Of a DNA stretch of 64,000 nt, positions 7,313-49,760 are shown piece by piece (positions within the stretch are counted from its first letter, which is position 1; every line of letters begins with the position of its first letter). The stretch is from positions 23,746,001-23,810,000 of the forward strand of contig CM069160.1 in assembly GCA_035221665.1 (NCBI GenBank), written 5' to 3'. The position numbers and the translations under genes were made by a program. A model generated the notes under the pieces. That model was not told where the DNA came from, searched no databases, and worked only from the letters and a program-made list of their open reading frames with translations. The stretch is from Okamejei kenojei. Lineage: Eukaryota.

Positions 7313-9482
7313 ATTCAGTACAACATGGCAGCGCTTGGAAGTAGGCATCATGGCAGGCTGCACAGTCTCACCCTTGGCCTTTACAATGGCCATGGAAGTC
7401 ATCATCAGGGCCTCAAAATGGGAGGTGGGTGGTGAACGAACCAGAGCTGGTCTCCGTCTGCCACCCATCAGGGCATACATGGACGATATGACAACAATAA
7501 CCACTACTGCAGCATGCACCAATCGGCTACTTGGAAAGCTGCAGGAGAACATCAAGTGGGCCCGAATGAAAATCAAACCAAGTAAGTCTCGAAGCATCTC
7601 CATAGTTTAGGGGGTGCTTAGAGACACAAGGTTCTGCATCGGTGACGACCTAATACCAACAGTGTCTGAGCAGCCAGTAAAAAGCCTGGGCAGATGGGAC
7701 AACGCAAGTCTCAAGGACAATGAGCAGGTGCAACAGCTAATGCAAGAAATTGTCAACGGCCTGGAGATCATCAATCAGACCCTACTGCCTGGGAAACTGA
7801 AGCTCTGGTGCCTACAGTTTGGACTCCTTCCTCGGACAATGTGGCCACTGACCGTTTATGAAGCTCCAATAACAACTGTGGAGAAGATGGAGCGAACCAT
7901 AACTTCATACAAGAAGAAATGGCTCGGTGTCCCACGATGTCTAACTAACATCGGCCTCTATGGCAAAGGGGTCCTGGAACTACCTCTCACTAGTCTAACA
8001 GAGGAATACAAGTGTTCCAAAGTAAGACCCAGATGACACTGAGGGACTCTAGAGACAAGACCATCAGTGCTGTTGCGCCGCCCCTAGTAACCGGCCGGAA
8101 GTGGACACCATCTGATGCAGTACAGCAAGCTTCATCAGCCCTGAGCCACAAAGACGTCGTGGGGCAAGTGCAGCAGGGAAGAGGAGGCTTTGGCCTTACG
8201 ACAAGTAAACCAACTTGGCGAAAGGCCACAACATCAGAGCGAAGGACATTGGTGGTTGAGGAGGTGCGGCGACAGGAGGAGGCCGCAAGAAGTGCAAAGT
8301 CGGTCTCGCTTGCCAAACAGGGGCAATGGATGCAGTGGGAAGGTGTGGAGCGGAGGAAGATCAGCTGGAAAGAACTATGGGAAATGAAATCAAGCAAGAT
8401 CAGCTTCATGATCAGAGCGACATACGACGTCCTTCCATCACCAAACAACCTCAATCAGTGGTACGGCGAGGATCCAACTAGTGCCCTCTGCCCAACTCCA
8501 GCGACCCTCAAACACATCATGGTAGGCTGCAAGACCAGCCTCACGCAAGGGAGATACACGTGGAGGCATAATCAGGTATTAAAATGCCTGGCAACAGCCC
8601 TTGAGAACAGGCTGTGTGCGACCAACTCCTTGCCTCCGAGAGCAAGCAACCCCTCCCACTTAAGGGCGACAACCTTTGTCCGAGAAGGACAGAAAACACC
8701 GAAACATCCTTCCACTAGATCAGAAGAAGGAAACCTATGCAGGGCCCATGACTGGAGGATGCTGGTGGACATCGGCCGACAACTAATCTTTCCACCTGAA
8801 ATTGCTTCAACCAACCTCAGGCCAGATTTGGTGTTCTGGTCCCTTTCACAGAAGACTGCTTACATCATAGAGCTCACAGTTCCATGGGAGAACTCTGTTG
8901 TGGAGGCCTATGAGCGTAAGAAGCTGCGCTACACAGAGCTTGCAGCAGAGGCAACGCAGCGTGGCTGGAACATCAACGTTTATCCAGTTGAAGTGGGATG
9001 CAGAGGATTTGTTGCGTCATTTACCATCAGACTGCTGAAGGAGCTTGGAATCCACGGTCAGGCTCTGCAGAAGACCATAAGATCACTCTCAGACGCGGCT
9101 GAAAGAAGAAGCTGTTGGATTTGGCTCAAGCGGAAAGACCCATGCTGGGCCCCAAATGCGTCATGGTGAATCTTTGAGGCAGTTTAAAACGGGACACACG
9201 CTGAGGGCTGATCATCCTGCAGCGGGCCGCCCTTGTGGAGGGTGTATAGTGATAAAAGGCCGAAACACCCAGTGCTGCAAGGGTACACTACTGATGATGT
9301 GTCCTGTGCCCAGCTGTCCTGAAGGTTACCCAGGCCAAGTTATACGTATACGTACCCCCCCCCCCGCCCCCCCCCCTGATGTTGAGCGTCCACCACTCTC
9401 AGCAATCAATGAATGTCGTGAAATGCTCCCCACCTACTGGCACAAGGGACTACTTAACATCTAGTCCTGTGTATTTAATTCT
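7313..9482 (+). mobile_element. HERO-type (R2 superfamily, restriction-like endonuclease) non-LTR retrotransposon, 5'-truncated copy 1
   Basis: GIMAGCTVSPLAF and AYMDD RT motifs; zinc knuckle region LCPTPATLKHIMVGC; RHNQVL; RPDLV..IELTVPWE..ERKKLRY RLE motifs; stop and frameshift present; 3' UTR nearly identical to 17990-18301. Confidence 0.9.
9191..9305 (+). ncRNA. Candidate permuted, pseudoknotted hammerhead ribozyme in HERO 3' UTR (copy 1)
   Basis: GGGTGT-A-TAGTG..GGCC-GAAACACCC..CACTA-CTGATGA with all helices pairable; K-turn position 2b is C here (A in copy 2). Confidence 0.65.
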
Positions 9483-12429
9483 GAAAATCTGGACTTATCC
9501 AGTGACTGCTGTGAAAGGACAGCTGACAACATGGGAAAGTCCATGTGACAGCTTGGAGAGACAGCTGACAGGAGGGAACAGACCGCAATGGGGCCGTCAT
9601 GGGCTAGCTCCCCATGACAGCAGTCTCCAACGCTGTTTCAGCTAGTTGGAGACACCCGCTAAATGCTACAAAAAGTAAATTAAATGAAATACCCCTAGAG
9701 CCTGCGAGCGGGGGCGCAAGATGGCTCACCGATTGATAACACGGTTACAGACCCAGGAACGGAAACGACCACGGACAAGGAGAGCATGGCACATGAGACA
9801 TCCACAACAGCTGCGGGACACAAACTTCAGGTGTGCATCTGTGGTTGGGAGAAAGGAACATCAATGATGGGCTTGAAGATCCACCAAGGGAGGAAAAAGT
9901 GCTTGAGAGAGCAGAGACATGGGCCTCGCATTGACCAGTACTTCCTACGAAGCAACCAGTCAAATCAGTCGAATGAAGCACAGCGACGGGACGCAAACCA
10001 AAGTTCGCAGAGCATCAGCACCCATGTCACTGAAGAGGGTGATACAAGCACAGAAATGCCGGTGGAGGAGCCCACGCAACAACTACAAAGACCTCCATTG
10101 GAGGGAAAGATCAAAGGGCATAAACCTGGAGTGAAGTGGCCCAAAGCTGTTGAAAGGAAAGAGTGGGAGACGGTCAACAGTGACCTTATACATATCTTGG
10201 AGCAACAACTGGGCACAGCAGTGGAAAAGCTTGAAAGGATGGGCAACATAATCTACAGCTATGGAGAAGAACGGTTTGGGGTGAGTAAAGGGAGAGGTGG
10301 AAAGAAGTTACCAACACCAATCAAGTCCAGGAGGCAGCAGGAGATCGAGAGGCTAATCAGAGAGAGGAGACAGTTGAAAAAGCAATGGAAAAAAGCAACT
10401 GACGCAGAGAGAGAAGGTCTCATGCTACTGCAAGAGGACATCAAGAGCCGATTGGCAACCTTGCGAAAAGCAGAGAACATGAGGAAACTTTACAAGAATA
10501 AATAACACACAAGAACACGGTTCTACAAAGACCCTTTCAAGTTCATCAAAGACCTCTTCGCAAAGGAAAAAAGTGGAACTTTGAAAACATCAAAACAAGA
10601 ATTGGAGGAACACCTGGAAAAGGCCCACCAAAACACGAAAAGGAATGAGAAGTTAGTCATCCCACATGACATCACACCTATTCAACCACCTGAATTCAAC
10701 CTGGACACCAGCCCTCCGAAATGGAAAGAGGTGGAGAACACTGTCCGGCGAGCAAGAGCAGCATCAGCTCCGGGGCCAAACGGAGTACCATACAAGCTCT
10801 ACAAGAATGCACCAGATGTGTTACGCTTTCTATGGAAGCTCATGAGGGTGGTGTGAAAGAAGCAAACAATACCTCAGGTGTGGCGAAGGGCCGGCGGCAT
10901 ACTAATACCTAAAGAAAAGGATGAATTAGACATCAGCCAATTCCGGCCAATATGTCTCCTCAACGTCGAGGGAAAAATCTTTTTCAGCATTGTATCACAA
11001 AGGCTATCCACCTATCTGGTAACAAACAAGTACATTGATACATCTGTACAGAAAGCAGGAATTCCAGGTTTTTCGGGCTGCTTGGAGCATACAAGCATGA
11101 TCTGGCACCAGATCCAAGCAGCTAAGAAGGACAAGAGAGACCTACATGTGATATTCCTCGATCTGGCCAATGTATTTGGTTCAGTTCCACATGAACTCCT
11201 TTGGGAATCTTTTGCCTTTTTCCATGTACCAGAGCTCATCACCCCACTGGTCAAGAACTATTTCCAAGACCTGCAGCTGTGCTTCACAACAGCTGAATTC
11301 AGTACAACATGGCAGCCCTTGGAAGTAGGCATCATGGCAGGCTGCACAGTCTCACCCTTGGCCTTTACAATGGCCATGGAAGTCATCATCAGGGCCTCAA
11401 AATGGGTGGTGGGCGGTGAACGAACCAGAGCTGGGCTCCGTCTGCCACCCATCAGGGCATACATGGACGATATGACAACAATAACCACTACTGCAGCATG
11501 CACCAAGCGGCTACTTGGAAAGCTGCAGGAGCACATCAAGTGGGCCCCAATGAAAATCAAACCAAGTAAGTCTCGAAGCATCTCCATAGTTAAGGGGGTG
11601 CTTAGAGACACAAGGTTCTGCATCGGTGACGACCTAATACCAACAGTGTCTGAGCAGCCAGTAAAAAGCCTGGGCAGATGGTACAACGCAAGTCTCAAGG
11701 ACAAAGGGCAGGTGCAACAGCTAAGACAAGAAATTGTCAACGGCCTGGAGATCATCAATCAGACCCTACTGCCTGGGAAACTGAAGCTCTGGTGCCTACA
11801 GTTTGGACTCCTTCCTCAGACAATGTGGCCACTGACCGTTTATGAAGCTCCAATAACAACTGTGGAGAAGATGGAGCGAACCATAACTTCATACGCGAAG
11901 AAATGGCTCGGTGTCCCACGATGTCTAATAGTAAGATTAAATGAGAACTTACCAGTTCGAAGTTTGATCTGTATTTTATGAGGAGTTACGATGAGGGATT
12001 ACGCGAAGACCCCGTCCAGCACGCATGCGCGACATTTCTTCAAAGCAGCGGTGTGGATTCACAGAAAAACACAACAATTGAAATAAATATAGTAAAGAAA
12101 AAATAAGAACTTAATTACCAGTTGATTTGTATAATAGAGGGTGGGAGCGGAGGGCACGTAATCCCTCATCGTAACTCCTCATAAAATACAGATCAAACTT
12201 CGAACTGGTAAGTTCTCATTTAATCTTACTATTTTACTTCGGAGTCACGTGAGTGACTACGTGAAGACATCAAAGCTCTGTGAATCCGAACCGTGTACCA
12301 GCTCATGCTTCACTCACTGCCTGAAGACCTTAGAGGGAGGAAGCATGTTATACAATCAACAATAACCTGTTTGTGAAAAATAAAGGTTTATTATTGATAA
12401 CAAAAAACAGAGAGCTCCCCCGGCTTAAA

Positions 12430-13415
12430 TTAAATATTAGCTACAGACTCTAAAATTCTGTCTGCAAATTTAGCAGGTTCCGCCAGCGGCTTATTATAAA
12501 ACCTTTGGAAAGTTCTTTCCGAGGACCATCCTGCTCTGGCCAGAATATGGTCCATAGGCACATCCATTCGCCTAGCCGCCGACGTAGATGAAGCCCTGGT
12601 GGAATGAGATTTGTAAACATTAGTATCGACTCCCGCGGACTTAAGCACCTGCTTGAGCCATCTTGAAATGGTTTGGCTCGTCACCTGACCATGAGGCTTC
12701 CTGTGGCTTATCCATAAGGCTTTTTCTCTCCCTCTTAAGTTGTATGTTGTGTCTATGTAATTGGCGAGATGGGTCTTGGCACACAACCGTTGGTCAGGTG
12801 AATATGCCCGGAACTCCATTACTGGAGGCGTGGTACCTGGTCTAGTTTGTTTGACCAGTCCCTGAATGTGAAATGTGATACAGTCCAATGACTCTGTCAT
12901 ATTGTCCAGCCTCAGAAGGTGGAGGGACTGTACCCTTTGAGCTGATCTAGGGCCATGAGCATGACTGATTTCAGTGTAAGTTGTTCCAGAGTGAGTGACC
13001 TGGGTGGTGTCCATCCTCTAAGGTACGTCAGTACAATGCTGACATCCCAGATCTGAGTGTACCCAGGCCTAGGGGAATTGGTGTTAAAAATGCCCCTCAT
13101 GATTTTGACCACTAGTGGATGGGACCCCAAAGTCAGTTGTCCTGCTGCTGGAACCAAATAAGCTGACAACGCACTCCTGGCTGTATTAATGGCGCTGTAG
13201 CTGAGTCCTTCCCGATGTAATCCAACCAGAAACTCCACAACACTGGTGGCTGTAGCTGTAGTGTAGGTAGTTCCTGTTTTGGTGCAATACCGTTCCCATT
13301 TTCTTATGTTGGTCAGGTATTGTCTCCTGGTGGACTCCCGGTGGGATGCGGTCATCATGTTGATGGCGTCCTCAGACAGGCCCAGGCCCAGTTGAGGTCT
13401 TTTTAGAATCTGCAA
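12430..13415 (-). pseudogene. DIRS tyrosine recombinase (frameshift near 12945)
   Basis: ORFs 12912..13415 (LSYSAINTARSALS) and 12430..13014 (YKSHSTRASSTS, AGWSSERTFQRFY catalytic H-x-x-R, W, Y). Confidence 0.9.
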
Positions 13416-16400
13416 GCCAGGAGATTGACTCTGTCATGGCACGGGTGACTAATGCCTGACACTGGGTGGATTAATAACTCTCGACTGCTGGGGAATTCCA
13501 ATGGTGTTTCAACAGCCATGTCGAGGGCCACTGGGAACCATGGCTGTGTAGGCCAGTCGGGTATTATCAAGATTCCTGAAGCGGAATCCAATTGAATCTT
13601 ACGTAATACCCGACTGATGAGGCAGAAGGGAGGAGAAGCATAAAATAACTTTTTCCCCCAATGCAGCGAGAATGCATCAATTGCTGCTGCCTCAGGGTCT
13701 GGTTCCCAAGCGACAAACGTTGGTACCTGGTGATTCAGCCTGGATGCAAATAGATCGATATCTGGTGTGCCATATTGCTTTGTAATTTCAGCAAACATTT
13801 TGGAATTTAACATCCATTCGATGTTATCATTGAATCTGCGTGACCTGGTGTCTGCCACTGTATTTTGCTTACCTGGTAGGTAAGTTGCTGAAAACCAAAT
13901 ATGTCTTTCAACACACCATTGCCAGATTAGGTTGACCAAATTGTCACACGATATCGCCTTAACTCCACCCATGTGGTTGATATAAGCCACCACAGTGGTA
14001 TTATCTAATTGCAACCGGACATGTGCATGATGCGTATTAGATGAATATGCTTTTAACCCATAAAACGCACCCAACATTTCTAAGTAGTTGATACCCCGTG
14101 TCTGTAGGCAAGATGATTCAAATTTAGTCCATCTGCCCCCTGTGCTGGATTGCATGTTAGTTGCTCCCCAGCCCAAAGCACTGGCATCCGTTTGAATGGT
14201 TAATACTGGGTTGGTGATTATTATGGGACTGGAGCTGAGCCTTACGTTCCTTGCCCACCATTGTAACTCTGGAATGGATTCAGCAGTTAAACTCATAGCT
14301 CGGTCCAAGTGACCTGAGTTTTGCTTTAGTGCATGCACTTTTGCTCTTTGCAAATTTTGATAGTGCAAAGGCCCAAATTGTACAGCTGGAAAAGCTGCTA
14401 CCATTTTGCCAATAACTCTGGCTACCTCCCGTATGGTTGGCTGATGTTTATTCATGAGTTCGTTGCATGATAGTGCCAATTCTGATGCTTTCCCCTTCGG
14501 CAGAGTTACAATCATGCGAACAGTATCAATCGTAAATCCAAGATAGTCCATGGCAGTGGACGGTGTAAAATTGGATTTATCTGGATGCATGACAAACCCC
14601 AAAGTTTCAAACAAACGTTTGGTAGCTGCTACTGCCGAAATGGCTGTCTCCAAGGTTTTCCCTACTATTAAAATGTCGTCTAAATACGCCATGACTATAT
14701 GCTTTTGTTTCCTCAATAATGCCAAGGCGGGTTTTAAGATTTTAGTGAACAGCCTTGGAGCGGAGGTTAGCACATTTGGTAAGGCTTTGAATTGCCATAG
14801 CTGTTTCATCCAGATAAATTTTAAGTATTTACGATGCTCCTTGTTTATGGGTACTGAGTAGTAGGCATCTTTTAAATCAATGCTTGCTAGAAAGTACCCT
14901 CTAGAAACCAATAGTCTGGCTGTTTCAAAAGTATCCATCTTGAAATGTATATACCTGACAGACTTGTTTAAAGTAGTTAAGTCAATGATGATGCGACGTC
15001 CACCATCTTTTTTGATTTTAGTGAAAATATTAGACACAAATTCCAATGGTTCATGTTTTGTTCTTTCAATTACACCTTTTGCTTGTAACCTCATCAGTTC
15101 AGCTTGACACTCTTGTTTCCCTTTGACTGCGAGGGTGAATACCCTTTGGGGTATATGCTGAACTGGCGGAATGTTTTTATGAACAAAGTCAATTGTGTAG
15201 CCATGAATGCTGCTGAGTATATACTTGTCATTAGTGATGGATTCCCATGCATCCAAAAACAAGTGCAATCTCCCCCCTGTTGGTATAGAGCCCCTACTGC
15301 TCATATGCTGAGAGGAACCAGACCCACCTACCTCCATGGTTATTGGTGCTTCTTCTGTCTCTTCGCTGGGCGATGAGGCGTCTGCTGGGCTGTAGAGGGT
15401 TGATGTTGATGTTGATGTTGTTGGGGGTGGCGCATTTTCCATGGGGTCCGCTCTGGGCCCTGGCTTACGGGGAATGGTTGCGGACCCCGAGCTTTCACCA
15501 GTCCCATAGTGTGGTCGACGACTGGTGGACGCCAAGGGGTACTGCCGCCTGGGTTTGTTAGGTCTGCTCGGTCCCAAACCTGCCCTCACGAGACCAATGG
15601 TCTTGGATTCTTCCTCTAGGTCTTTCACCTTTTTTGGAAGGTCTTTCCCAAAGAGCAGAATAGGAGGTTCTGAACCCGGTGTTTTGCAAAGTCCCGCAAA
15701 TTTAGGGTTGAGGGCAGGCTTGATGATTTCCTTCCGTAAATTGTTTATTTCATGTTGAGTGGTGCACAGCAGAGCTAATGTGTCTTGCTGATTTGTGGAG
15801 ATGTCCACACCATCAATGGACCGAGCATATGATGTTATTCCTGCAGTTAGCAGTTTAAGGATTTTCTGGAGCTTCAACTCCAGGTTCCTGATGTTCTGCC
15901 CCAAATGTCCCCAAATGTGGCTGTTTACAGCTGGTACATTCAATGATGTACAATTTACTGGGGCTGTATATTGTTCAAGAGCCTCATTGACCACCTGTTC
16001 TTGTAGGGGTTTTGAGTTCAGGTGGTTAATGCTGGCTGCAAGTTTCGGCTCTAACGGCCGACCCGCTTGTGGAATGGCCACGTAGCGGTTGACCACACCC
16101 AGCAGCTCTTCCTGATCCTGTACACCCTGCGTACTCCCGATATCTTCAGCCAGTGACCCCTATTCTTGACCAGCCCAGACCTGGTCGCCAATGCTGCCTT
16201 CAAAAGAAGGTGAAGCAATGGCCAGTGCCGTAAAAGGCACTGAGGGAGTGCCTGAGCTCCCTTGGCGAGTCTGCTGCTGCTCTCTCAGCAGATCTCGCAG
16301 GAGCAATTGCTCCATAAGCCGTTCCATGCGGCTTAGGCGGCTGCCTGTATCGCTCTCGAGCGGTGTGGCATCTTCATCCGAATCGTCGGACACTACCGCC

Positions 16401-16645: not shown

Positions 16646-18007
16646 TTTGTAGCGGGAGCGCCTTGAACTCCCGTTCGTCGCGGGTGCACTGCATGAACGC
16701 TAATGTCGCGCATGCGTGCTGGACGGGGTCGTCACGTAGTCACTCACGTGACTCCGAAGTAAAACTAACATCGGCCTCTATGGCAAAGGGGTCCTGGAAC
16801 TACCTCTCACTAGTCTAACAGAGGAATACAAGTGTTCCAAAGTAAGACTCCAGATGACACTGAGGGACTCTAGAGACAAGACCATCAGTGCTGTTGCGCC
16901 GCCCCTAGTAACCGGCCGTAAGTGGACACCATCTGATGCAGTACAGCAAGCTTCATCAGCCCTGAGGCACAAAGACGTCGTGGGGAAAGTGCAGCAGGGA
17001 AGAGGAGGCTTTGGCCTTACGACAAGTAAACCAACTTGGCGAAAGGCCACAACATCAGAGCGGAGGACATTGGTGGTTGAGGAGGTGCGGCGACAGGAGG
17101 AGGCCGCAAGAAGTGCAAAGGCGGTCTCGCTTGCCAAACAGGGGCAATGGATGCAGTGGGAAGGTGTGGAGCGGAGGAAGATCAGCTGGAAAGAACTATG
17201 GGAAATGGAATCAAGCAAGATCAGCTTCATGATCAGAGCGACATACGACGTCCTTCCATCACCAAACAACCTCAATCAGTGGTACAGCGGGGATCCAACC
17301 TGTGCCCTCTGCCCAACTCCAGCGACCCTCAAACACACCATGGTAGGCTGCAAGACCAGCCTCACGCAAGGGAGATATACGTGGAGGCATAATCAGGTAC
17401 TAAAAAGCCTGGCAACAGCCCTTGAGAACAGGCTGTGTTCGACCAACTCCTTGCCTCCGAGAGCAAGCAACCCCTCCCACTTAAGGGCGACAACCTTTGT
17501 CCGAGAAGGACAGAAAACACCGAAACATCCTTCCACTAGATCAGAAGAAGGAAACCTATGCAGGGCCCATGACTGGAGGATGCTGGCGGACATCGGCCGA
17601 CAACTAATCTTTCCACCTGAAATTGCTTCAACCAACCTCAGGCCAGATTTGGTGTTCTGGTCCCTTTCACAGAAGACTGCTTACATCATAGAGCTCACAG
17701 TTCCATGGGAGAACTCTGTTGTGGAGGCCTATGAGCGTAAGAAGCTGCGCTACACAGAGCTTGCAGCAGAGGCAACGCAGCGTGGCTGGAACATCAACGT
17801 TTATCCAGTTGAAGTGGGATGCAGAGGATTTGTTGCGTCATCTACCATCAGACTGCTGAAGGAGCTTGGAATCCACGGTCAGGCTCTGCAGAAGACCATA
17901 AGTTCACTCTCAACGCGGCTGAAAGAAGCAGCTGTTGGATTTGGCTCAAGCGGAAAGACCCATGCTGGGCCCCAAATGCGTCATGGTGAATCTTTGAGGC
18001 AGTTTGA

Positions 18008-18128
18008 CACGGGACACACGCTGAGGGCTGATCATCCTGCAGCGGGCCGCCCTTGTGGAGGGTGTATAGTGATAAAAGGCCGAAACACCCAGTGATGCAA
18101 GGGTACACTACTGATGATGTGTCCTGTG
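18008..18128 (+). ncRNA. Candidate permuted, pseudoknotted hammerhead ribozyme with kink-turn in HERO 3' UTR (copy 2, best preserved)
   Basis: CTGATGA 18111-18117, GAAA 18082-18085, GUA triplet ending 18066; stems I, II, III plus 11-bp closing helix; K-turn CCC-AGT-GA-T / G-GA-GGG. Confidence 0.72.
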
Positions 18129-18674
18129 CCCAGCTGTCCTGAAGGTTACCCAGGCCAAGTTATACGTATACGTACCCCCCCCCCCCCCCCCCCCCCGATG
18201 TTGAGCGTCCACCACTCTCAGCAATCAATGAATGTCGTGAAATGCTCCCCACCTACTGGCACAAGGGACTTCTTAACATCTAGTCCTGTGTATTTGATTC
18301 TCATGGGGGGACCTTAAGTGAACCCAAGCTAAGTTAATTAATCGTTACATCATTTTGTTCTTATAGGTGCTCTCATAGGCCAATGTAACTTTCCGCGATA
18401 ATTATTACTGTATTGTTCAACGTTGCGATCCTCTTGTTATATATTTTGGGATATTTTGGATCGGTCACATAATATTACCAAATTCGACTTGTATCTAGAT
18501 TATTGCGGTACACGAGGAAACCAAAGGAGATAACCATAAATATGTTGTTACTTTCTGATTAGACATCTTTCATAAGGAGGAAATAAGAGGTTTTATTCAG
18601 AAGTAGCAGGTGCTATAATAGTGCAACAAAGCTGAAATTGAACAGAACATGCTATTTTAAGGTTCAGCTCTCAC

Positions 18675-27071: not shown

Positions 27072-28740
27072 CATTGAGGGAAGTTAGTGTAGAAATAGCA
27101 GGGGCTATGAGTGAATTATTTCAAATGTCATTAGAAACGGGAATGGTGCCGGAGGATTGGCGTACTGCGCATGTTGTTCCAGTGTTTAAAAGGATTCTGA
27201 GAGTAAACCTAGCAATTATAGACCTGTTAGTTTGACGTCAGTGGGGGGCAAATTAAAGGAAAGGATACTTAAAGATAATAAATATAATCATCTGTATGAA
27301 GAGGATCTGATTGGGAACATTCAACATGGATTTGTACCTGGACCGCCATGTTTGACTAATCTTCTTGAATTTTCTGAAGTCGTTACTAGAGAAATTGATG
27401 AAGGTAAAGCGATGGATGTTGTCTATATGGACTTCAGAAAGGCCTTTGACAAGGTTCCACATAGACGGTTGTTTAAGAAGGTTCAATTGTGGGTATTAAA
27501 AGTGGAGTAGCAAGATGGATTCAACAGTGGTTGAATGGGAGATTCCAGAGAGTAATGGTGGATAACTGTTTGTCAGGATGGAGGCTGGTGACTAGTGGGG
27601 TGCCTCAGGGATCTAGGTTGGGTCCACTGTTGTTTGTCATATACATCAATGATCTGGATGATGGTGTGGTGACTTGGATTTGTATGTATGCAGGTGATGA
27701 TAAGATAGGTGGTGTTGTGGATAATGAAGGAGATTTTCAAAATCTACAGTGTCATTTAGGCCACTTGGAAGAGTGTGCTGGAAGATGGCAGATGGAGTTT
27801 AATGCTGATAAGCGTGAGGTGCTACATCTTGGCAGGACAAATATGAAGAGGACATGCATGGTAAATGGTAGAGCATTGAGGAATGAAGTTGAACAGAGGG
27901 ATCTAGGAATAACTGTGCATAGTTCCCTGAAGGTGGAATCTCATGCAGATAGGGCGGTAAAGAAAGCTTTCGGTGTGCTGGCCTTTATAAATCAGAGCAT
28001 TGAGTATATAAGTTGGGATGTAATGTTAAAATTGTACAAGGCACTGGTGAGGCCAATTCTGGAGTCTGGTGTACGATTTTGGTCGCCAGATTATAGGAAA
28101 GATGTCAACAAAACAGGGAGAGTACTGAGGAGATTTACTAGAATGTTGCCTGCGTTTCAGCACCTAGGTTACAGCGAAAGGTTGAACAAGATAGGTCTTT
28201 ATTATTTGTAACGCAGCGGGTTAAAGGGGGACTTGATAGAGGTATTGAAAATTATGAGCGGGATAGATAGAGTTGACGTGGATAAATGTTTTCCAATGAG
28301 AGTAGGGATGTTTGAAACAAGAGGGACACAAGTTTAGGGGTAACCTGAGGGGGAACATCTTTACTCCGAGAGTGGTAGCTCTGTGGAATGAGTTTCCAGT
28401 GCAAATGGTGGAGGCAGATTCGATTTAGACATAGATTGGATAGTATATGGACGGGAAAGGAATGGAGGATTATGATCTGAATGCGGGTACATGGGACTAG
28501 GTGAGAGTAAGTGTTCGGCACGGACTAGAAGGGCCGAGATGGCCTGTTTCGGTGCTCTAATTGTTATATGGTTATATGGTTATATGGTTTTGCAGGGCAA
28601 TCGCTATACAAAGCCTTGCGTGCACCGTGCATCACCGGATTGGCAAGGACAAGAGCCATCAAGAACACCACAGGCAGCGGAGAAGGCCTAGAGATGGCTC
28701 TGGATCAGGAGAGCAGGTCCTTGGGAAGGTGCGAATGCCA

Positions 28741-28858
28741 CCTGAACACAAGTCGTGGTCTGATCAACCACGGCTGGGTCGCCTGGACTAGGGTGTCTGA
28801 TGTTGAAAGACCAGAAACAACCAATGATGACAGGTTACATACTGAGGATGTGTTCAGG
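28741..28858 (+). ncRNA. Diverged homolog of the permuted hammerhead in the second HERO-like family 3' UTR (decayed)
   Basis: CCTGAACACA/TGTGTTCAGG closing helix, 9-bp hairpin with CTGATCA loop, GGTC/GACC stem II, GGGTGT-C-TGATG, GAAAC, CTGAGGA. Confidence 0.65.
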
Positions 28859-29078
28859 AGCATCAATAGATGCATTTTTATCAATTATATTTTGAACTGT
28901 TGAATATATGTCGAATAACTGCCCGGAATTTTATGATTGGTGGAAACTCAGAGATGAATCCTAATCATACTTCCTACAATGAGGAATAAAGAGTTCACTA
29001 TGCAAACTTGAACACGTCGTTCTCATGTTGGGAAATTGAAAATTGTAATTTATATTGTCTATTGAGTCTTTAGCTTAC

Positions 29079-39530: not shown

Positions 39531-41950
39531 GTAACCATATAACCATATAACCATATAACCATATAACAATTACAGCACGGAAACAGGCCTTCTCGGCCCT
39601 TCCAGTCCGTGCCGACCATTTGTTTTCCCCTAGTCCCATCTACCTGCACTCAGACCATACCCCTCCATTCCCATCACGTCCATATACCTATCCACTTTAC
39701 TCTTAAATGTTAAAATCGATCCTGCCTCCACCACTTCTGCTGGAAGCTCATTCCACACAGCCACCACCCTCTGAGTAAAGAAGTTCCCCCTCACATTACC
39801 CCGAAACCTCTGTCCCTTAAATCTCATGTCATGCCCTCTTATTTGAATCTTCCCTACCCTCAATGGGAAAAACGTATCCACGTCAACTCTGTCTATCCCT
39901 TTCATCATTTTAAGACCTCAATCAAGTCCCCCCTTAAACCTCTGCGCTCCAAAGAATAAAGACCTAACTTGTTCAACCTTTCTCTGTAACATAGTTGCTG
40001 GAACCCTGGCAACATTCTAGTAAATCTCCTCTGTACTCTCTCTATTTTGTTGACATCCTTCCTATAACTAGGCGACCAAAATTGTACACCATACTCCAGA
40101 ATTGGTCTTACCAATGCCTTGTACAATTTTAACATTACTTCCCTACTCCTATATTCAATGCTCTGATTTATAAAGGCCAGCACACCAAAGGTTTTCTTTA
40201 CCACCCTATCTACATGCGATTCCACCTTCAGGGAACTATGCACAGTTATTCCTAGATCCCTCTGTTCCACAGCATTCCTCAATTCCCTACCATTTACCAT
40301 GTACGTCCTATTTTGATTTGTCCTGCCAAGATGTAGCAGTTCACACTTATCAGCATTAAACTCCATCTGCCATCTTTCAGCCCACTTTTCCAAATGGCCC
40401 AAATCTCTCTGTAGACGTTGAACATCTACTTAATTATCCACAACACCACCTATCTTAGTATCATCTGCATACTTACTTATCCAATTTTCCACCCCATCAT
40501 CCAGATCATTGATGTACATGACAAACAACAGTGGACCCAACACAGATCACTGAGGCACCCCACTGGTCACCGGCTTCCAACCTGACAAACAGCCATCCAC
40601 CATTACTCTCTGACATCTCCCATTCAGCCACTGTTGAATCCATCTTGCTACTCCGCCATTAACACCCAAAGATTGAATCTTCTTAACCAACCTTCCATGG
40701 GGAACCTTGTCAAAGGCCTCACTGAAATCCATATAGACAACATCCACTGCTTTACCCTCATCAATTTCCCTAGTTACCGCTTCAAAAAAATTCAAGAAGG
40801 TTTGTCAAACATGACCTTCCAGGCACAAATCCATGTTGACTGTTCCTGATCAGACCCTGTTTATCCAGATGCTTATATATATTATCTCTAAGTATCCTTT
40901 CCATTAATTTGCCCACCACTGACGTCAAACTAATAGGTCTATAATTGCTAGGTTTATTCTTTGAACCCTTTTTAAACAATGGAACAACATGCGCAGTACG
41001 CCAATCCTCCGGCACTATTCCCGATTCTAATGACATTTGAAATATTTCTGTCATAGCTCCTGCTATTTCTACACTAACTTCCCTCAATGTCCTAGGGAAT
41101 ATCCTGTCTGGACCTGGAGACTTATCCACTTTTATATTTTTCAAAAGTGTCAGTACTTTCTCCTCTTTGAATCTCATAGTTTCCATAGCTACTCGACTTT
41201 TTCCCCTTAACTCACATAGTTCAATATCCTTCTCCTTGGTGAATACCGAAGAAAATAAATTGTTCAATATCTCCCCCATCTCTTTTGGCTCTGCAGATAG
41301 CTGTCCATTCTGGTTCTCTAATGGTCCAATTGTATCCCTCGTTATCCTTTTGCTATTAATATAGCTGTAGAAACTCTTTGGGTTTACTTTCACCTTTCCT
41401 GCCAAAGCAACCTCATATCTTCTTTTAGCCTTCCTAATTTCTTTCTTAGGATTCTTTTTACATTCTTTATACTCCTCTAGCACCTCATTTACTCCATGCC
41501 TCCTATAATTATTGTAGATATCTCTCTTTTTTGGAAACAAGTGTCCAATTTCCCTTGAAAATCATGGCTCTTTCCAATTTTTACTATTTCCTTTCAACCT
41601 AACCATAAAGATTCTGTACTCTTAAAATGTCCCCTTTAAATGTCCTCAATTTCTCTTCTACATCCATCCCATGAAACAAAGTGTCCCAATTCACTCCTTT
41701 AAAATCCTTACGCATTCCCTCAAAGTTAGCCTTTTCCAATCAAAAATCTCCACCCTAGGTCCAGTTCTGACTCTCTCCATAATTATATTGAAACTAATGG
41801 TATTGTGATCACTGGTCCCGAAGTGCTCACCAACGCATACCTCCGTCACCTGACCTGCCTCATTTCCTAACAGGAGGTCCAGCACTGCCCCTTCTCTGGT
41901 CGATACCTCTATGTACTGCTGCAAAAAACTATCCTGCACACATTTTACAA
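39531..41950 (-). mobile_element. Young 5'-truncated CR1 LINE
   Basis: ORF2 pieces [46 protein letters not shown]; (aaccatat)n tail at 39533-39567. Confidence 0.93.
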
Positions 41951-45384: not shown

Positions 45385-48300
45385 GGCTACTTTCAACTTG
45401 GTGCTTGGGTTCAGATTGCCCAGTCAACATGGATTGTGTGGGGAACAGGACCCCACGCTCCCGTTTCCCCCTCTTTCTCTCTCCCTTATCTCTATTTTGC
45501 TCTCTCTCCCCTCTTCACTCTCTCCTCTCTTCTCTGTGTTCCTTCTCTCTCTCTCCCATCATTACTCCCCCTCCCCCTCTATCCCATCCCTCTCCCTCCC
45601 TTCCCTATCTCTCCTTTTTCTCTCTCCGCCTCTCTCCCTCCCTTCTCTCTCCATTCTCGCTCCACCCCTCCACTCTTTCTCCATTTTCTCTCTCTCCCTT
45701 CTCTCTCTCACACTCTCCCGTCCCCTCTTCTCCTCCTCCACTCTCCCTTCGCTCTCCCATTCTCTCTGTCTCTGCCCCTTCTCTCTCTCCTCCGTCTCCA
45801 CTAGCGGGAGCGTCCCACACGCACTGACCGCGATGCATCGCCATCGGACCCCAACGCCGACACCAGTGTGATACCCTCTCCGACTTCGAACAAGTGCGCT
45901 CAAATTTAAACCTCATATCTTCTTGAGGGATTGATGGAATGGATGTCATCACCGGCTAAAGCACAGGCCGTTTGGACTGGGAAATAATTTCACCATTTAT
46001 TTAACTAAACACTGGCAGCAGTCCGTGTGAAAATACAGCACGTACCAACAATGCAGGCACTGTAAAACATGCGGCCGCTGGCCCTTCCTACGGGATGGGC
46101 GTTTAACTCGGCATTAAAATTCAAAAACAGAGCTACATTATTGGAAAAACAAAAATGTTACATGCATAAATCGTTCTTACATTCGGGAACATGTCTTTTA
46201 ACTGTCATTATTTCCCTGTCCTAACGGCCTTTGCTTTAGCCGGTAATTCAATCCATTCCATCCCTCTACTCGCAAAGATGTGAGATTTCAATTTGAGCAC
46301 ACTTGCTTGAAGTCGGAGGGAGCAGGGTCACCCTGGGGTAGTGATTTTGGTCGGATGGCGGTCCATCGTGGTCAGTGACTGTGGGACGCTCTCGCCGGTG
46401 GAGTCGGAGGAGAGGGAGCAGGGAGCGGGAAAGAGAGAAGGCAGAGAAAGGGGAGAGAAGGGGAGGGGAGAGGATGAGAGAGAAGGGGGGATATAGAAGT
46501 GAGGGAGAGAGAGCAGGAGAGAGAGAAGGGGTCCCTGTTAGGTTGAAAGGAAATAGTAAAAATTGGAAAGTGCCATGGTTTTCAAGGGAAATTGGACACT
46601 TGTTTCGAAAAAAGAGAGATATCTACAATAATTATAGGAGGCATGGAGTAAATGAGGTGCTAGAGGAGTATAAAGAATGTAAAAAGAATCTTAAGAAAGA
46701 AATTAGGAAGGCTAAAAGAAGATATGAGGTTGCTTTGGCAAGAAAGGTGAAAGTAAACCCAAAGGGTTTCTACAGCTATATTAATAGCAAAAGGATAACG
46801 AGGGATAAAATTGGACCATTAGAGAACAGGAATGGACAGCTATCTGCAGAGCCAAAAGAGATGGGGGAGATATTGAACATTTTTTTTTCTTCGGTATTCA
46901 CCAAGGAGAAGGATATTGAACTCTGTGAGTTAAGGGGAAAAAGTAGAGTAGCTATGGAAACTATGAGATTCAAAGAGGAGGAAGTACTGACACTTTTGAA
47001 AAATATAAAAGTGGATAAGTCACCAGGCCCTGACAGGATATTCCCTAGGACATTGAGGGAAGTTAGTGTAGAAATAGCAGGAGCTATGACAGAAATATTT
47101 CAAATGTCATTAGAAACGGGAATAGTGCCGGAGGATTGGCGAACTGCGCATGTTGTTCCATTGTTTAAAAAGGGTTCAAAGAATAAACCTAGCAATTATA
47201 GACCTATTAGTTTGACGTCAGTGGTGGGCAAATAAATGGAAAGGATACTTAGAGATAATATATATAAGCATCTGGATAAACAGGGTCCGATCAGGAACAG
47301 TCAACATGGATTTGTGCCTGGAAGGTCATGTTTGACAAACCTTGAATTTTTTGAAGCGGTAACTAGGGAAATTAATGAGGGTAAAGCAGTGCATGTTGTC
47401 TATATGGATTTCAGTAAGGCCTTTGACAATGTTCCACATGGAAGGTTGGTTCAGAAGGTTCAATGTTTGGGTGTTAATGGCGGAGTAGCAAGATGGATTC
47501 AACAGTGGCTGAATGGGAGATGTCAGAGAGTAATGGTGGATGGCTGTTTGTCAGTTTGGAAGCCGGTGACCAGTGGGGTGCCTCAGGGATCTGTGTTGGG
47601 TCCACTGTTGTTTGTCATGTACATCAATGATCTGGATGATGGGGTGGAAAATTGGATAAGTAAGTATGCAGATGATACTAAGATAGGTGGTGTTGTGGAT
47701 AATTAAGTAGATTTTCAAAGTCTACAGAGAGATTTGGGCCATTTGGAACAGTGGGCTGAAAGATGGCAGATGGAGTTTAATGCTGATAAGTGTGAAATGC
47801 TACATCTTGGCAGGACAAATCAAAATAGGACGTACATGGTAAATGGTAGGGAATTGAGGAATGCTGTGGAACAGAGGGATCTAGGAATAACTGTGCATAG
47901 TTCCCTGAAGGTGGAATCGCATGTAGATAGGGTGGTAAAGAAAGCCTTTGGTGTGCTGACCTTTATAAATCAGAGCATTGAATATAGGAGTAGGGAAGTA
48001 ATGTTAAAATTGTACAAGGCATTGGTAAGACCAATTCTGGAGTATGGTGTACAATTTTGGTCGCCTAGTTATAGGAAGGATGTCAACAGAATAGAGAGAG
48101 TACAGAGGAGATTTACTAGAATGTTGCCAGGGTTCCAGCATCTATGTTACAGAGAAAGGTTGAACAAGTTACGTCTTTATTCTTTGGAGCGCAGAAGGTT
48201 AAGGGGGGACTTGATTGAGGTCTTTAAAATGATGAAAGGAATAGACAGAGTTGACGTGGATACGTTTTTCCCATTGAGGGTATGGAAGATTCAAACAAGA

Positions 48301-48925
48301 GGGCATTACATGAGAATTAAGGGACAGAGGTTTCGGGGTAACGTGAGGGGGAACTTCTTTACTCAGAGGGTGGTGGCTGTGTGGAATGAGCTTCCAGCAG
48401 AAGTGGTGGAAGCAGGATCGATTTTAACATTTAAGAGTAAAGTGGATAGGTATATGGACGTGAAGGGAATGGAGGGGTATGGTCTGAGTGCAGGTAGATG
48501 GGACTAGGGGAAAACAAATGGTCGGCACGGACTGGAAGGGCCGAGAGGGCCTGTTTCCGTGCTGTAATTGTTATATGGTTATATGGTTATATGGGTGAGA
48601 GAGAAGGTAGGAAGTGTGGCAGAGAGAGAGATAGTAAAGGAGAGAGGTGAGAGAGAGAGAGGGGAGGGAGTGGGGGAGAGAGAGAAAATGGGGGAGAGAG
48701 AAGGGAGGGAGAGGAGGAGAGAAGTGGGGAGCGAGAAGATGGAAGAGCGAAGATGGGAGAGGGAGTAGGAGAGAAAGCAGGGGGAGAATGAGAAGGGAGC
48801 GAGAGAGGGGGGAGAGAGGGCAGATTGGGATATAGAAAGGGAGACGGGAGCGTTGGGGGTCATTTTCCCGCACAGGCCATAGGTGGCTGCGCAATCTGAA
48901 CCTAAGCCGCTAGTTCAAAGCGGCA
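45385..48925. repeat. Diverged long inverted repeat (arms about 45385-46000 and 46200-48925 minus the CR1), including CT-rich and GA-rich low-complexity mirrors
   Basis: ccggctaaagcacaggccgtttggac vs gtcctaacggcctttgctttagccgg; gagcgtcccaca vs tgtgggacgctc; ggttcagattgc vs gcaatctgaacc. Confidence 0.8.
46530..48593 (+). mobile_element. Young 5'-truncated CR1 LINE, nearly identical to 39531-41950 but inverted
   Basis: ORF2 pieces with [11 protein letters not shown]; (gttatatg)n tail at 48570-48593; inserted in the GA-rich tract. Confidence 0.93.
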
Positions 48926-48934
48926 GAAAATGCC

Positions 48935-49760
48935 TTCAGTTGTTTGGCTTGACCTGCCCTGCGCTTGAAACTGCAATGGCAATGGAAATGAAATGAAAAT
49001 ACTACCAGCTATATCGCCTCCCTGCGCTTGAAACTGCAATGGCAAACGAGGTGAAACGAAATTGCAGTGAACTGTTAGAAATTAGGTGCAGGAGTAGGCC
49101 ATTCAGCCCCTCGGTTAGCTATGTGCTTGAAACTGCATTGGCAATTGAGTGAAATGAAAATACAATCTGTTCGGACTGCCATGTGCTTCAAACAGCAATG
49201 GCAATTAAAATTTAGTGAAAATACAATTAGCACTTTGGCCTGCTTTGTGTTGAAACAGCAATGGCAATGGAAGTTAAATGAAAATTAATTGAGCTCTTCG
49301 TCCTGCCCTGTGCTTGAAACTGCAATGGCAAGGGAAATGAAAATGCAGTGAGCTGTTCGGCCTGCCCTGTGCTTGAAACAGCTATGGTAATGGAACTTAA
49401 ATGAAAAAGCATCAGCTATTTGGCTTGGCCTGCCATGTGCTAGGAACTGCAATGGTAATGGAAATGAAATGCAATTACAACCAGCTGTTTGCCTGCCCTG
49501 TTGCTTGTAATGCCTGCCCGGCAATGGCAATGGAAATGAAATGAAAATGGAATCAGCTGTTTGGTCTGCCCTGTACTTGAAACTGCAATGGCAATGGAAG
49601 TGAAATGAAAATACAATGAACTGTTCGGCCTGCCCGTTGCTTGTAACTACAATGGCAATGAAAGTGCAATGAAAATGCAGTTAGCTGTTCGGCCTGCTCT
49701 GTGATTGAAACTGCAATGGAGATGGAAATTAATTGAAATGTGTTGTTTGGCCTGCCTGTA
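48935..49760. repeat. Minisatellite, unit about 60 bp, about 13 diverged copies
   Basis: Unit ctgttcggcctgccctgtgcttgaaactgcaatggcaatggaaatgaaatgaaaat.. repeated head-to-tail without unique spacers. Confidence 0.88.

Follow-up and report, generated by a model that had tools for sequence, protein, structure and literature searches.

Does the segment at positions 28741–28858 of the window (the whole 64,000-nt stretch of Okamejei kenojei DNA analysed here) carry a selected RNA fold, and if so, what could such a fold do for the retrotransposon in whose 3′ untranslated region (UTR) it lies? The comparisons below argue that the fold is real, selected and lineage-wide. In our preferred reading, which we regard as probable, the window holds a decayed copy of a fold of HERO-like LINEs that would work on tandem transcripts as a catalytically active hammerhead with a new topology, read-through of its site being attributed to re-ligation or to control.

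HERO-like families and the copy in the window

The segment belongs to a short copy of a family termed F2, and the window also holds the fold in two copies of a family termed F1:

28591–28885 (+), 5′-truncated F2 copy of about 295 nt from an RLE non-LTR retrotransposon: ORF end, 3′ UTR fold and tail
28591–28746 (+), decayed C-terminal end of the F2 ORF, 3′ of the RLE domain
28859–28885 (+), F2 tail, to the 3′ end of the insertion
9190–9306 (+), fold of F1 copy 1, predicted site 9246/9247; the tail runs to about 9481 and is followed by a head-to-tail junction with the next unit
18010–18126 (+), fold of F1 copy 2, intact
28866–28885 and 9467–9481, regions with the TGTAT word, also present in many related loci
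L011:1033–1111/1796–1874, L025:1397–1468/1794–1865 and L002:895–950/1793–1848 (oriented coordinates), long direct repeats around F2 copies

One F1 copy has a 1082-aa open frame with a match to RVT_1; the conserved C-terminal residues C/C/H/C are presumably a CCHC knuckle, and RPD, ELTVPWE and K presumably the PD..E..K of an RLE endonuclease. A long ORF with RT, knuckle and C-terminal endonuclease is the organization of an RLE-type LINE. The genome search for F2, in which 1016 first-look candidates were reduced to 40 scored and 30 fetched copies, that of the window among them, yielded insertions with a common 3′ end, differing 5′ truncation and target duplications, as is typical of RLE-type LINEs. 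Direct repeats of 79, 72 and 56 bp, which flank 3 of 29 F2 copies, resemble long target-site duplications. The F1 fold showed no differences across 29 other fetched copies, which were chosen as best matches, and F1 is evidently a young family. Named protein relatives come from bony fish, lamprey, a ray, lancelets and bivalves. We assume that the HERO label suits the F1/F2 lineage, and the elements are termed HERO-like here. The HERO clade itself is established in the literature (PMC7650587).

Several other features were observed. A poly-C tract of highly variable length lies in the F1 tail between fold and 3′ end (9355–9377), and a TGTAT word, a candidate priming signal, occurs in many families 20–30 nt past the fold or just 5′ of the 3′ end. 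Directly upstream, the F2 fragment is adjoined by the tail of an RT-coding LINE; this tail, which carries the fragment, belongs to one copy of a group found at 27072–28589, 39541–41603 and 46531–48594, two of which form an inverted pair of 98% identity. A 918-aa RT-containing frame of yet another element (13403–16159, minus strand) lies between F1 pieces, the segments 7990–9376 and 16810–18196 are 98% alike, and a degenerate tandem array of about 63-nt units occupies 48900–49733.

The fold elements named in the preliminary description were all recovered at 28741–28858, in the order P0, H, stem II 5′ strand (IIa), S, G, stem I with CUGANGA, and P0:

28741–28750 (+), 5′ strand of the closing helix P0
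28751–28775 (+), hairpin H, adjoining both P0 and stem II, with a palindromic loop at 28760–28766
28776–28780 (+), 5′ strand of stem II, starting at G10.1 and displaced upstream of the core; it forms 4/4 pairs at a constant distance in 51 of 62 full matches
28782–28790 (+), 5′ strand of the stem III extension and K-turn GA; a G is lost at 28789 in this copy
28791–28802 (+), block S: stem III strand (28791–28796), C17 (28797) and stem I strand (28798–28802)
28797/28798 (+), cleavage site predicted by analogy
28803–28808, linker of 6 nt, which varies across the lineage
28809–28822 (+), block G: 3′ strand of stem II, GAAA (28814–28817) and stem III strand, damaged at 28813 and 28820
28823–28834 (+), K-turn bulge and GA, 3′ strand of the stem III extension; three lesions
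28838–28848 (+), shortened block C: stem I strand with one base missing, and CUGANGA (28842–28848)
28849–28858 (+), 3′ strand of P0, immediately 3′ of A9

The stop codon of this copy lies within the closing strand P0. The majority sequence of the 29 other F2 copies reads GACCC-GAAACACCC and CATCA-CTGATGA and has both K-turn GA, as had been predicted for a family consensus, each motif being intact in 21–29 of the 29; all three stems (I, II, III) as well as the core are likewise intact in this majority. Stem II, initially given 4 bp, has 5 bp in F2. The window copy departs from the majority at nine positions of the fold rather than at three as first listed, among them the G of the K-turn (28789) and the three bases 28828–28830, and what was taken for an extra A in front of GAAA is a C replaced by A at 28813 (position 11.1), with no insertion. 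CUGANGA, GAAA and the NUH core bases are retained, but C11.1 is not, and the K-turn pattern is broken. With the G10.1–C11.1 pair, one stem III pair and one stem I base lost, inactivation of this copy, proposed at the outset, is likely; the window F2 copy is most likely dead.

The original argument for selection was the agreement between two families with distantly similar coding sequences. The ORFs of F1 and F2 are indeed only 39–44% identical, the proteins sharing 44% in the RT-containing region and 39% in the C-terminal part, and the folds do match; being identical at 83 of 119 nt, they are on their own modest evidence. Selection on the fold is supported well past two families by pairing and covariation in an alignment of 26 copies and by the core rules in 38 held-out copies.

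Range, core and topology of the fold

Relatives were collected with an alignment of 39 C-terminal domains and comprised the best 80 of 361 relatives on metagenome contigs and eight from prokaryote assemblies. A strict descriptor, applied to the set without three external loci that stop short of the ORF end, parsed 41 of 85 external 3′ segments and, with one F1 and one F2 copy, 43 of 88, the window copy failing; it parsed 0/88 reverse complements, 0/155 coding segments and 0/440 shuffles (0/683 together). Twenty-four parsed loci and one copy each of F1 and F2 were aligned by sequence only. The invariant columns of this alignment, whose rows had been chosen for pairing, are the positions of the hammerhead core; 89.6% of cells pair, as compared to 37–42% with partners slid, and two-sided changes occur in 30 of 36 pairs. 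Covariation is seen in all six helices, with stem I, stem II and stem III paired in 100%, 91.5% and 98.7% of cells and changed on both sides in 4/4, 4/5 and 4/6 pairs.

Since the rows had been chosen for pairing, a covariance model was built without stems I and II. It matched 66 of the 88 related loci, once each, on the coding strand and downstream of the ORF. After two matches cut by contig ends and two with the middle lost were set aside, 62 full matches remained, 38 of which lay outside the model. The 22 non-matching loci include three that stop before the ORF end, seven with at most 160 nt downstream and four in which the fold is found by the descriptor or with filters off; in the remaining eight, with at least 300 nt downstream, neither model nor descriptor found it. 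On the tree, the fold is present across deep branches. Nested folding, which cannot represent pseudoknots, recovered P0 and H in six of six sequences and, L131 apart, stem III in those that are intact, with z about −2 to −4. A search of viruses gave no protein relative, and the model matched none of the 80 pattern loci listed, from at least 120 stretches. The matches in prokaryote assemblies lie on short contigs or MAG contigs and are probably contamination. A divergent copy of the fold (L198:2422–2531) was observed behind an RLE frame on a 539-kb contig of a bacterial MAG, possibly as a contaminant or chimera.

Stem I, which is absent from the model, is paired in 242 of its 248 cells, and in 146 of 152 among the held-out sequences (slid control 24–37%). 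A perfect core is found in 53 of the 62 full matches (29 of the 38 outside the model, 35 of 40 non-redundant): U4, A13 and A14 are present in all 62, G5, A6, G8, A9, A15.1 and U16.1 in 61 each, C3 in 59 and G12 in 57, and position 11.1 is C in 54 and U in 7. Hammerheads do not cleave at G17 and leave N7 unconstrained; here, H17 is C in 24, U in 20, A in 18 and G in none, while N7 is U in 39, C in 11, A in 8 and G in 4. The sequences being related to one another, such counts should not be read as probabilities. G12A accounts for five of the nine deviants, mostly within CCG, which CpG decay in dead copies would be expected to produce. Stem III extends through what we take to be the consensus of a K-turn, a 3-nt bulge and tandem GA/AG between two helices, in 47 of 62 (29 of 40 non-redundant). 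Judged by these rules, the fold very probably self-cleaves.

The blocks follow each other in the order S, G, C, which resembles type SGC, but by the pairing pattern stem II is separated from the CUGANGA block at A9/G10.1, which leaves no unbroken block C with a stem II strand at its end. Bases 3′ of CUGANGA pair with the 3′ strand of stem II in only 1–3 of 62, whereas its partner strand lies 19–20 nt upstream of U16.1 in 51 of 62. A plain SGC fold with stem II after CUGANGA was considered and ruled out (upstream partner in 51/62 versus 1/62). The bond between A9 and G10.1, direct or via 1–2 nt in hammerheads, is absent: A9 runs into P0, and the other strand of P0 runs via hairpin H to G10.1. 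No unpaired base occurs at the junction of P0, H and stem II in 39 of 62, and we infer that the insertion of P0 and H between A9 and G10.1 forms a four-way junction.

Tandem insertions and possible roles of the fold

All matched 5′ starts of F1 are tail-to-5′ junctions: 210 directly follow the tail of a preceding unit, and two more represent the same junction with small indels (212/212). A free-start pattern for F1, which detects about half of random flanks, yielded only these two. For F2, nine of the first 100 of 213 listed ends run, by eye, through the family's own junction into the 5′ end of a next unit, and other F2 ends extend a few bases into the junction. Of 37 external loci that extend 600 nt or more downstream, 11 have a next ORF there. 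At most of the tandem loci that show this following ORF, about 200 nt separate it from the fold upstream, and arrays of at least three units occur. A common 5′ UTR motif, CCAGTGAC followed by repeated GACA/GAAAG words, opens the next unit in distant families, F1 and F2, and is possibly a promoter or a second RNA structure:

L118, L121, L122, L126, L132, L138, L153 and L164 downstream of the fold, and window 9499–9560, shared 5′ UTR motif

Because tail-to-5′ junctions are obligatory in F1, the junction is probably part of the RNA that serves as template, with priming at an internal position; these junctions might instead arise by highly efficient template jumping. Internal priming has been shown for a Penelope element, for which cleavage by the hammerhead was dispensable for insertion in vitro (PMC11167929).

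Inserted copies mostly read through the predicted site. It is crossed by 66 of 80 terminal F1 copies (the first 80 of 353), whose ends show no step there, and by 54 of 80 upstream units (the first 80 of 210), 38 of which span the whole 0.9 kb fetched. Upstream partial units ending in the 54 nt 3′ of the site number 11, or nine without one duplicate and one ambiguous case, against an expectation of 1.8 (P about 1e-4 for the nine, in a bin drawn post hoc), and one ends in the 57 nt 5′ of the site. The difference between upstream and first-pass copies (9:1 versus 5:4) does not reach significance (p = 0.14), and stalling of the RT within the paired 3′ half would give the same asymmetry of ends. 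None of seven pattern matches, obtained with a pattern that detects about half of random flanks, starts exactly at the site; the nearest starts lie one base 3′ of it. Insertions at the site as the footprint of a nick were rejected, as their number (23) is similar to that in a control window (13) and looks like indel noise.

An active hammerhead might have a solely R2-like task, namely to release the downstream unit's 5′ end when tandems are transcribed by read-through; the template would be linear and longer than one unit, its own 3′ ribozyme remaining uncut, e.g. through a bound protein, and no circle being formed. HDV-like ribozymes act in this way in R2 and L1Tc (PMC6765202), and the position of the fold about 200 nt upstream of the next ORF as well as the excess of upstream-unit ends just 3′ of the site would fit. 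The passage of 54 of 80 upstream units through the site, with 38 spanning all of the fetched sequence, the arrays of at least three units and the lack of a hard 5′ end at the site nevertheless make this role unlikely.

Still less likely is a 3′ UTR structure without catalysis that the protein of the element binds, as in the case of the R2 3′ UTR, and that stays hammerhead-like for the sake of recognition. LINE proteins bind their template at the 3′ UTR, which is where the fold sits, and both the read-through of the site in most copies and the core changes in 9 of 62 agree with such a role. Protein binding, however, explains neither the absence of G at H17, where C, A and U alternate, nor the freedom of N7, nor the fact that the invariant columns are the catalytic positions; moreover, five of the nine core changes are the G12A substitutions that CpG decay of dead copies would give.

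The loop of hairpin H, described initially as invariant and as a possible kissing or protein-binding site, differs across the lineage, which rules out a sequence-specific invariant site. A palindromic hexamer in a stem is scored in 36 of 62 (22 of 40 non-redundant), in six types, and a palindrome occurs in the loop window of 40 of 62 against 7.2 expected from control windows. A conserved stop codon as the general function of the UGA in the loop was also rejected, as it is a stop in 7 of 20 scored TGATCA loops and out of frame in 12. The kissing idea is strengthened: symmetry is kept while the sequence changes through six hexamers, which fits loop–loop pairing between two copies, but 26 of 62 are not scored palindromic, so that such pairing would be optional. 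Cleavage solely in dimers, with kissing palindromic loops, swapped hairpin strands and CUGANGA meeting stem II of the other copy as in dimer-dependent Penelope hammerheads, in which palindromic loops enable dimers (PMC4209133), would fit the kept palindromes but is highly improbable, given that intact cores occur in several clades whose loops are tetraloops or lack a palindrome and that all core helices can form in cis.

According to the preferred reading, a hammerhead active on tandem transcripts, the ribozyme would cut head-to-tail transcripts 3′ of H17 into unit-length RNA, which would be re-joined or circularised ahead of reverse transcription. P0 and H would stack and, with stem II and the A9–G12 pair, make up a four-way junction that takes the place of the A9–G10.1 bond; P0, stem II and stem III would hold both products, so that re-ligation would be favoured. 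Reverse transcription would prime internally at the tail of the junction-containing RNA and may go round more than once. On balance, we lean towards a re-joined or circular template, as a circular monomer would account for both the tail-to-5′ junctions and the read-through of the site. Such a template has been proposed for Penelope elements (PMC4209133).

A more far-reaching and tentative proposal, which we hold to be possible but doubtful, is that an entire clade of autonomous animal LINEs replicates via circular RNA produced by a hammerhead of new architecture: the four-way junction would replace a phosphodiester of the core and lock the cut ends for ligation by the hammerhead, kissing of the palindromic loops would join copies and let two of them exchange strands, and the RT would roll round the circle to give arrays. 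As a likely ribozyme, the fold may explain why the elements insert as head-to-tail chains, and the hundreds of young copies of the element would allow the circular-template model for tandem retroelements to be put to the test.

Comparison with known ribozymes and retroelements

Rfam models of hammerheads (types I, II and III, HH9 and HH10) gave no match in the window at E up to 1, and no Rfam hammerhead was found in ten related loci at E up to 10. No description of the split-core arrangement was found in Rfam or in the full-text literature (mostly open papers, as titles, abstract openings and passages), nor was a tested precedent for a helix insertion at A9/G10.1 found in that literature. Hammerheads with additional helices are mentioned in a passage of PMC13725137; the passages of one source behind it contain no such additional helix, and a precedent may exist. 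Eckert et al. 2023 (PMC10085705) treat the hammerhead as blocks C, G and S, with at most 1–2 nt inserted beside CUGANGA, from which six orders are derived. If the fold is a hammerhead, it would be a natural exception to the block rule behind this enumeration of all six permutations, which would explain why the standard models miss it. It would also be the first non-circular permutation found tied to a known genomic element, and hammerheads would be added to RLE LINEs of fish and probably invertebrates, as bony fish, lancelet and bivalves are among the sources of the named protein relatives. The collected loci offer about 40 distinct natural variants for assays.

The closest counterpart is type SGC, of which active ribozymes are known (HRIMA-1; PMC10085705). 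It shares with the HERO-like fold the order S, G, C, a short linker between stem I and stem II, the same core and a pseudoknotted structure. Block C of HRIMA-1, consisting of a stem I strand, CUGANGA and a stem II strand, is continuous and was assumed in that work to be uninterruptible, whereas in the HERO-like fold the stem II strand lies upstream. Unlike HRIMA-1, the HERO-like fold has two helices bridging A9 to G10.1, the K-turn pattern and a palindromic hairpin, and while the HRIMA-1 RNAs are metatranscriptomic, it occurs in autonomous animal LINEs.

The Penelope-like hammerheads, located in pseudo-LTRs, resemble it in tandem or partial-tandem insertions, internal priming and a palindromic loop (PMC4209133; PMC11167929). 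An insertion between positions 9 and 10.1 is tolerated in both, and a circular template has been proposed (PMC4209133); in Penelope, this insertion is one extra base only, the hammerheads are ordinary circular permutations, and the element has a GIY-YIG endonuclease and a telomerase-like RT. The HERO-like elements, in contrast, are RLE LINEs, and the insertion in their fold would be a full four-way junction.

The HDV-like ribozymes of R2 and L1Tc are likewise self-cleaving RNAs of non-LTR retrotransposons that are considered to release it from a longer RNA, but they belong to another ribozyme class and lie at the 5′ end of the element (PMC6765202), whereas in inserted copies the HERO-like site lies 90–235 nt in from the 3′ end. 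Retrozymes, finally, are tandem retroelements which carry hammerheads and form circular RNA, and differ from the HERO-like elements in being small and non-autonomous and in having type I hammerheads (PMC7229834).
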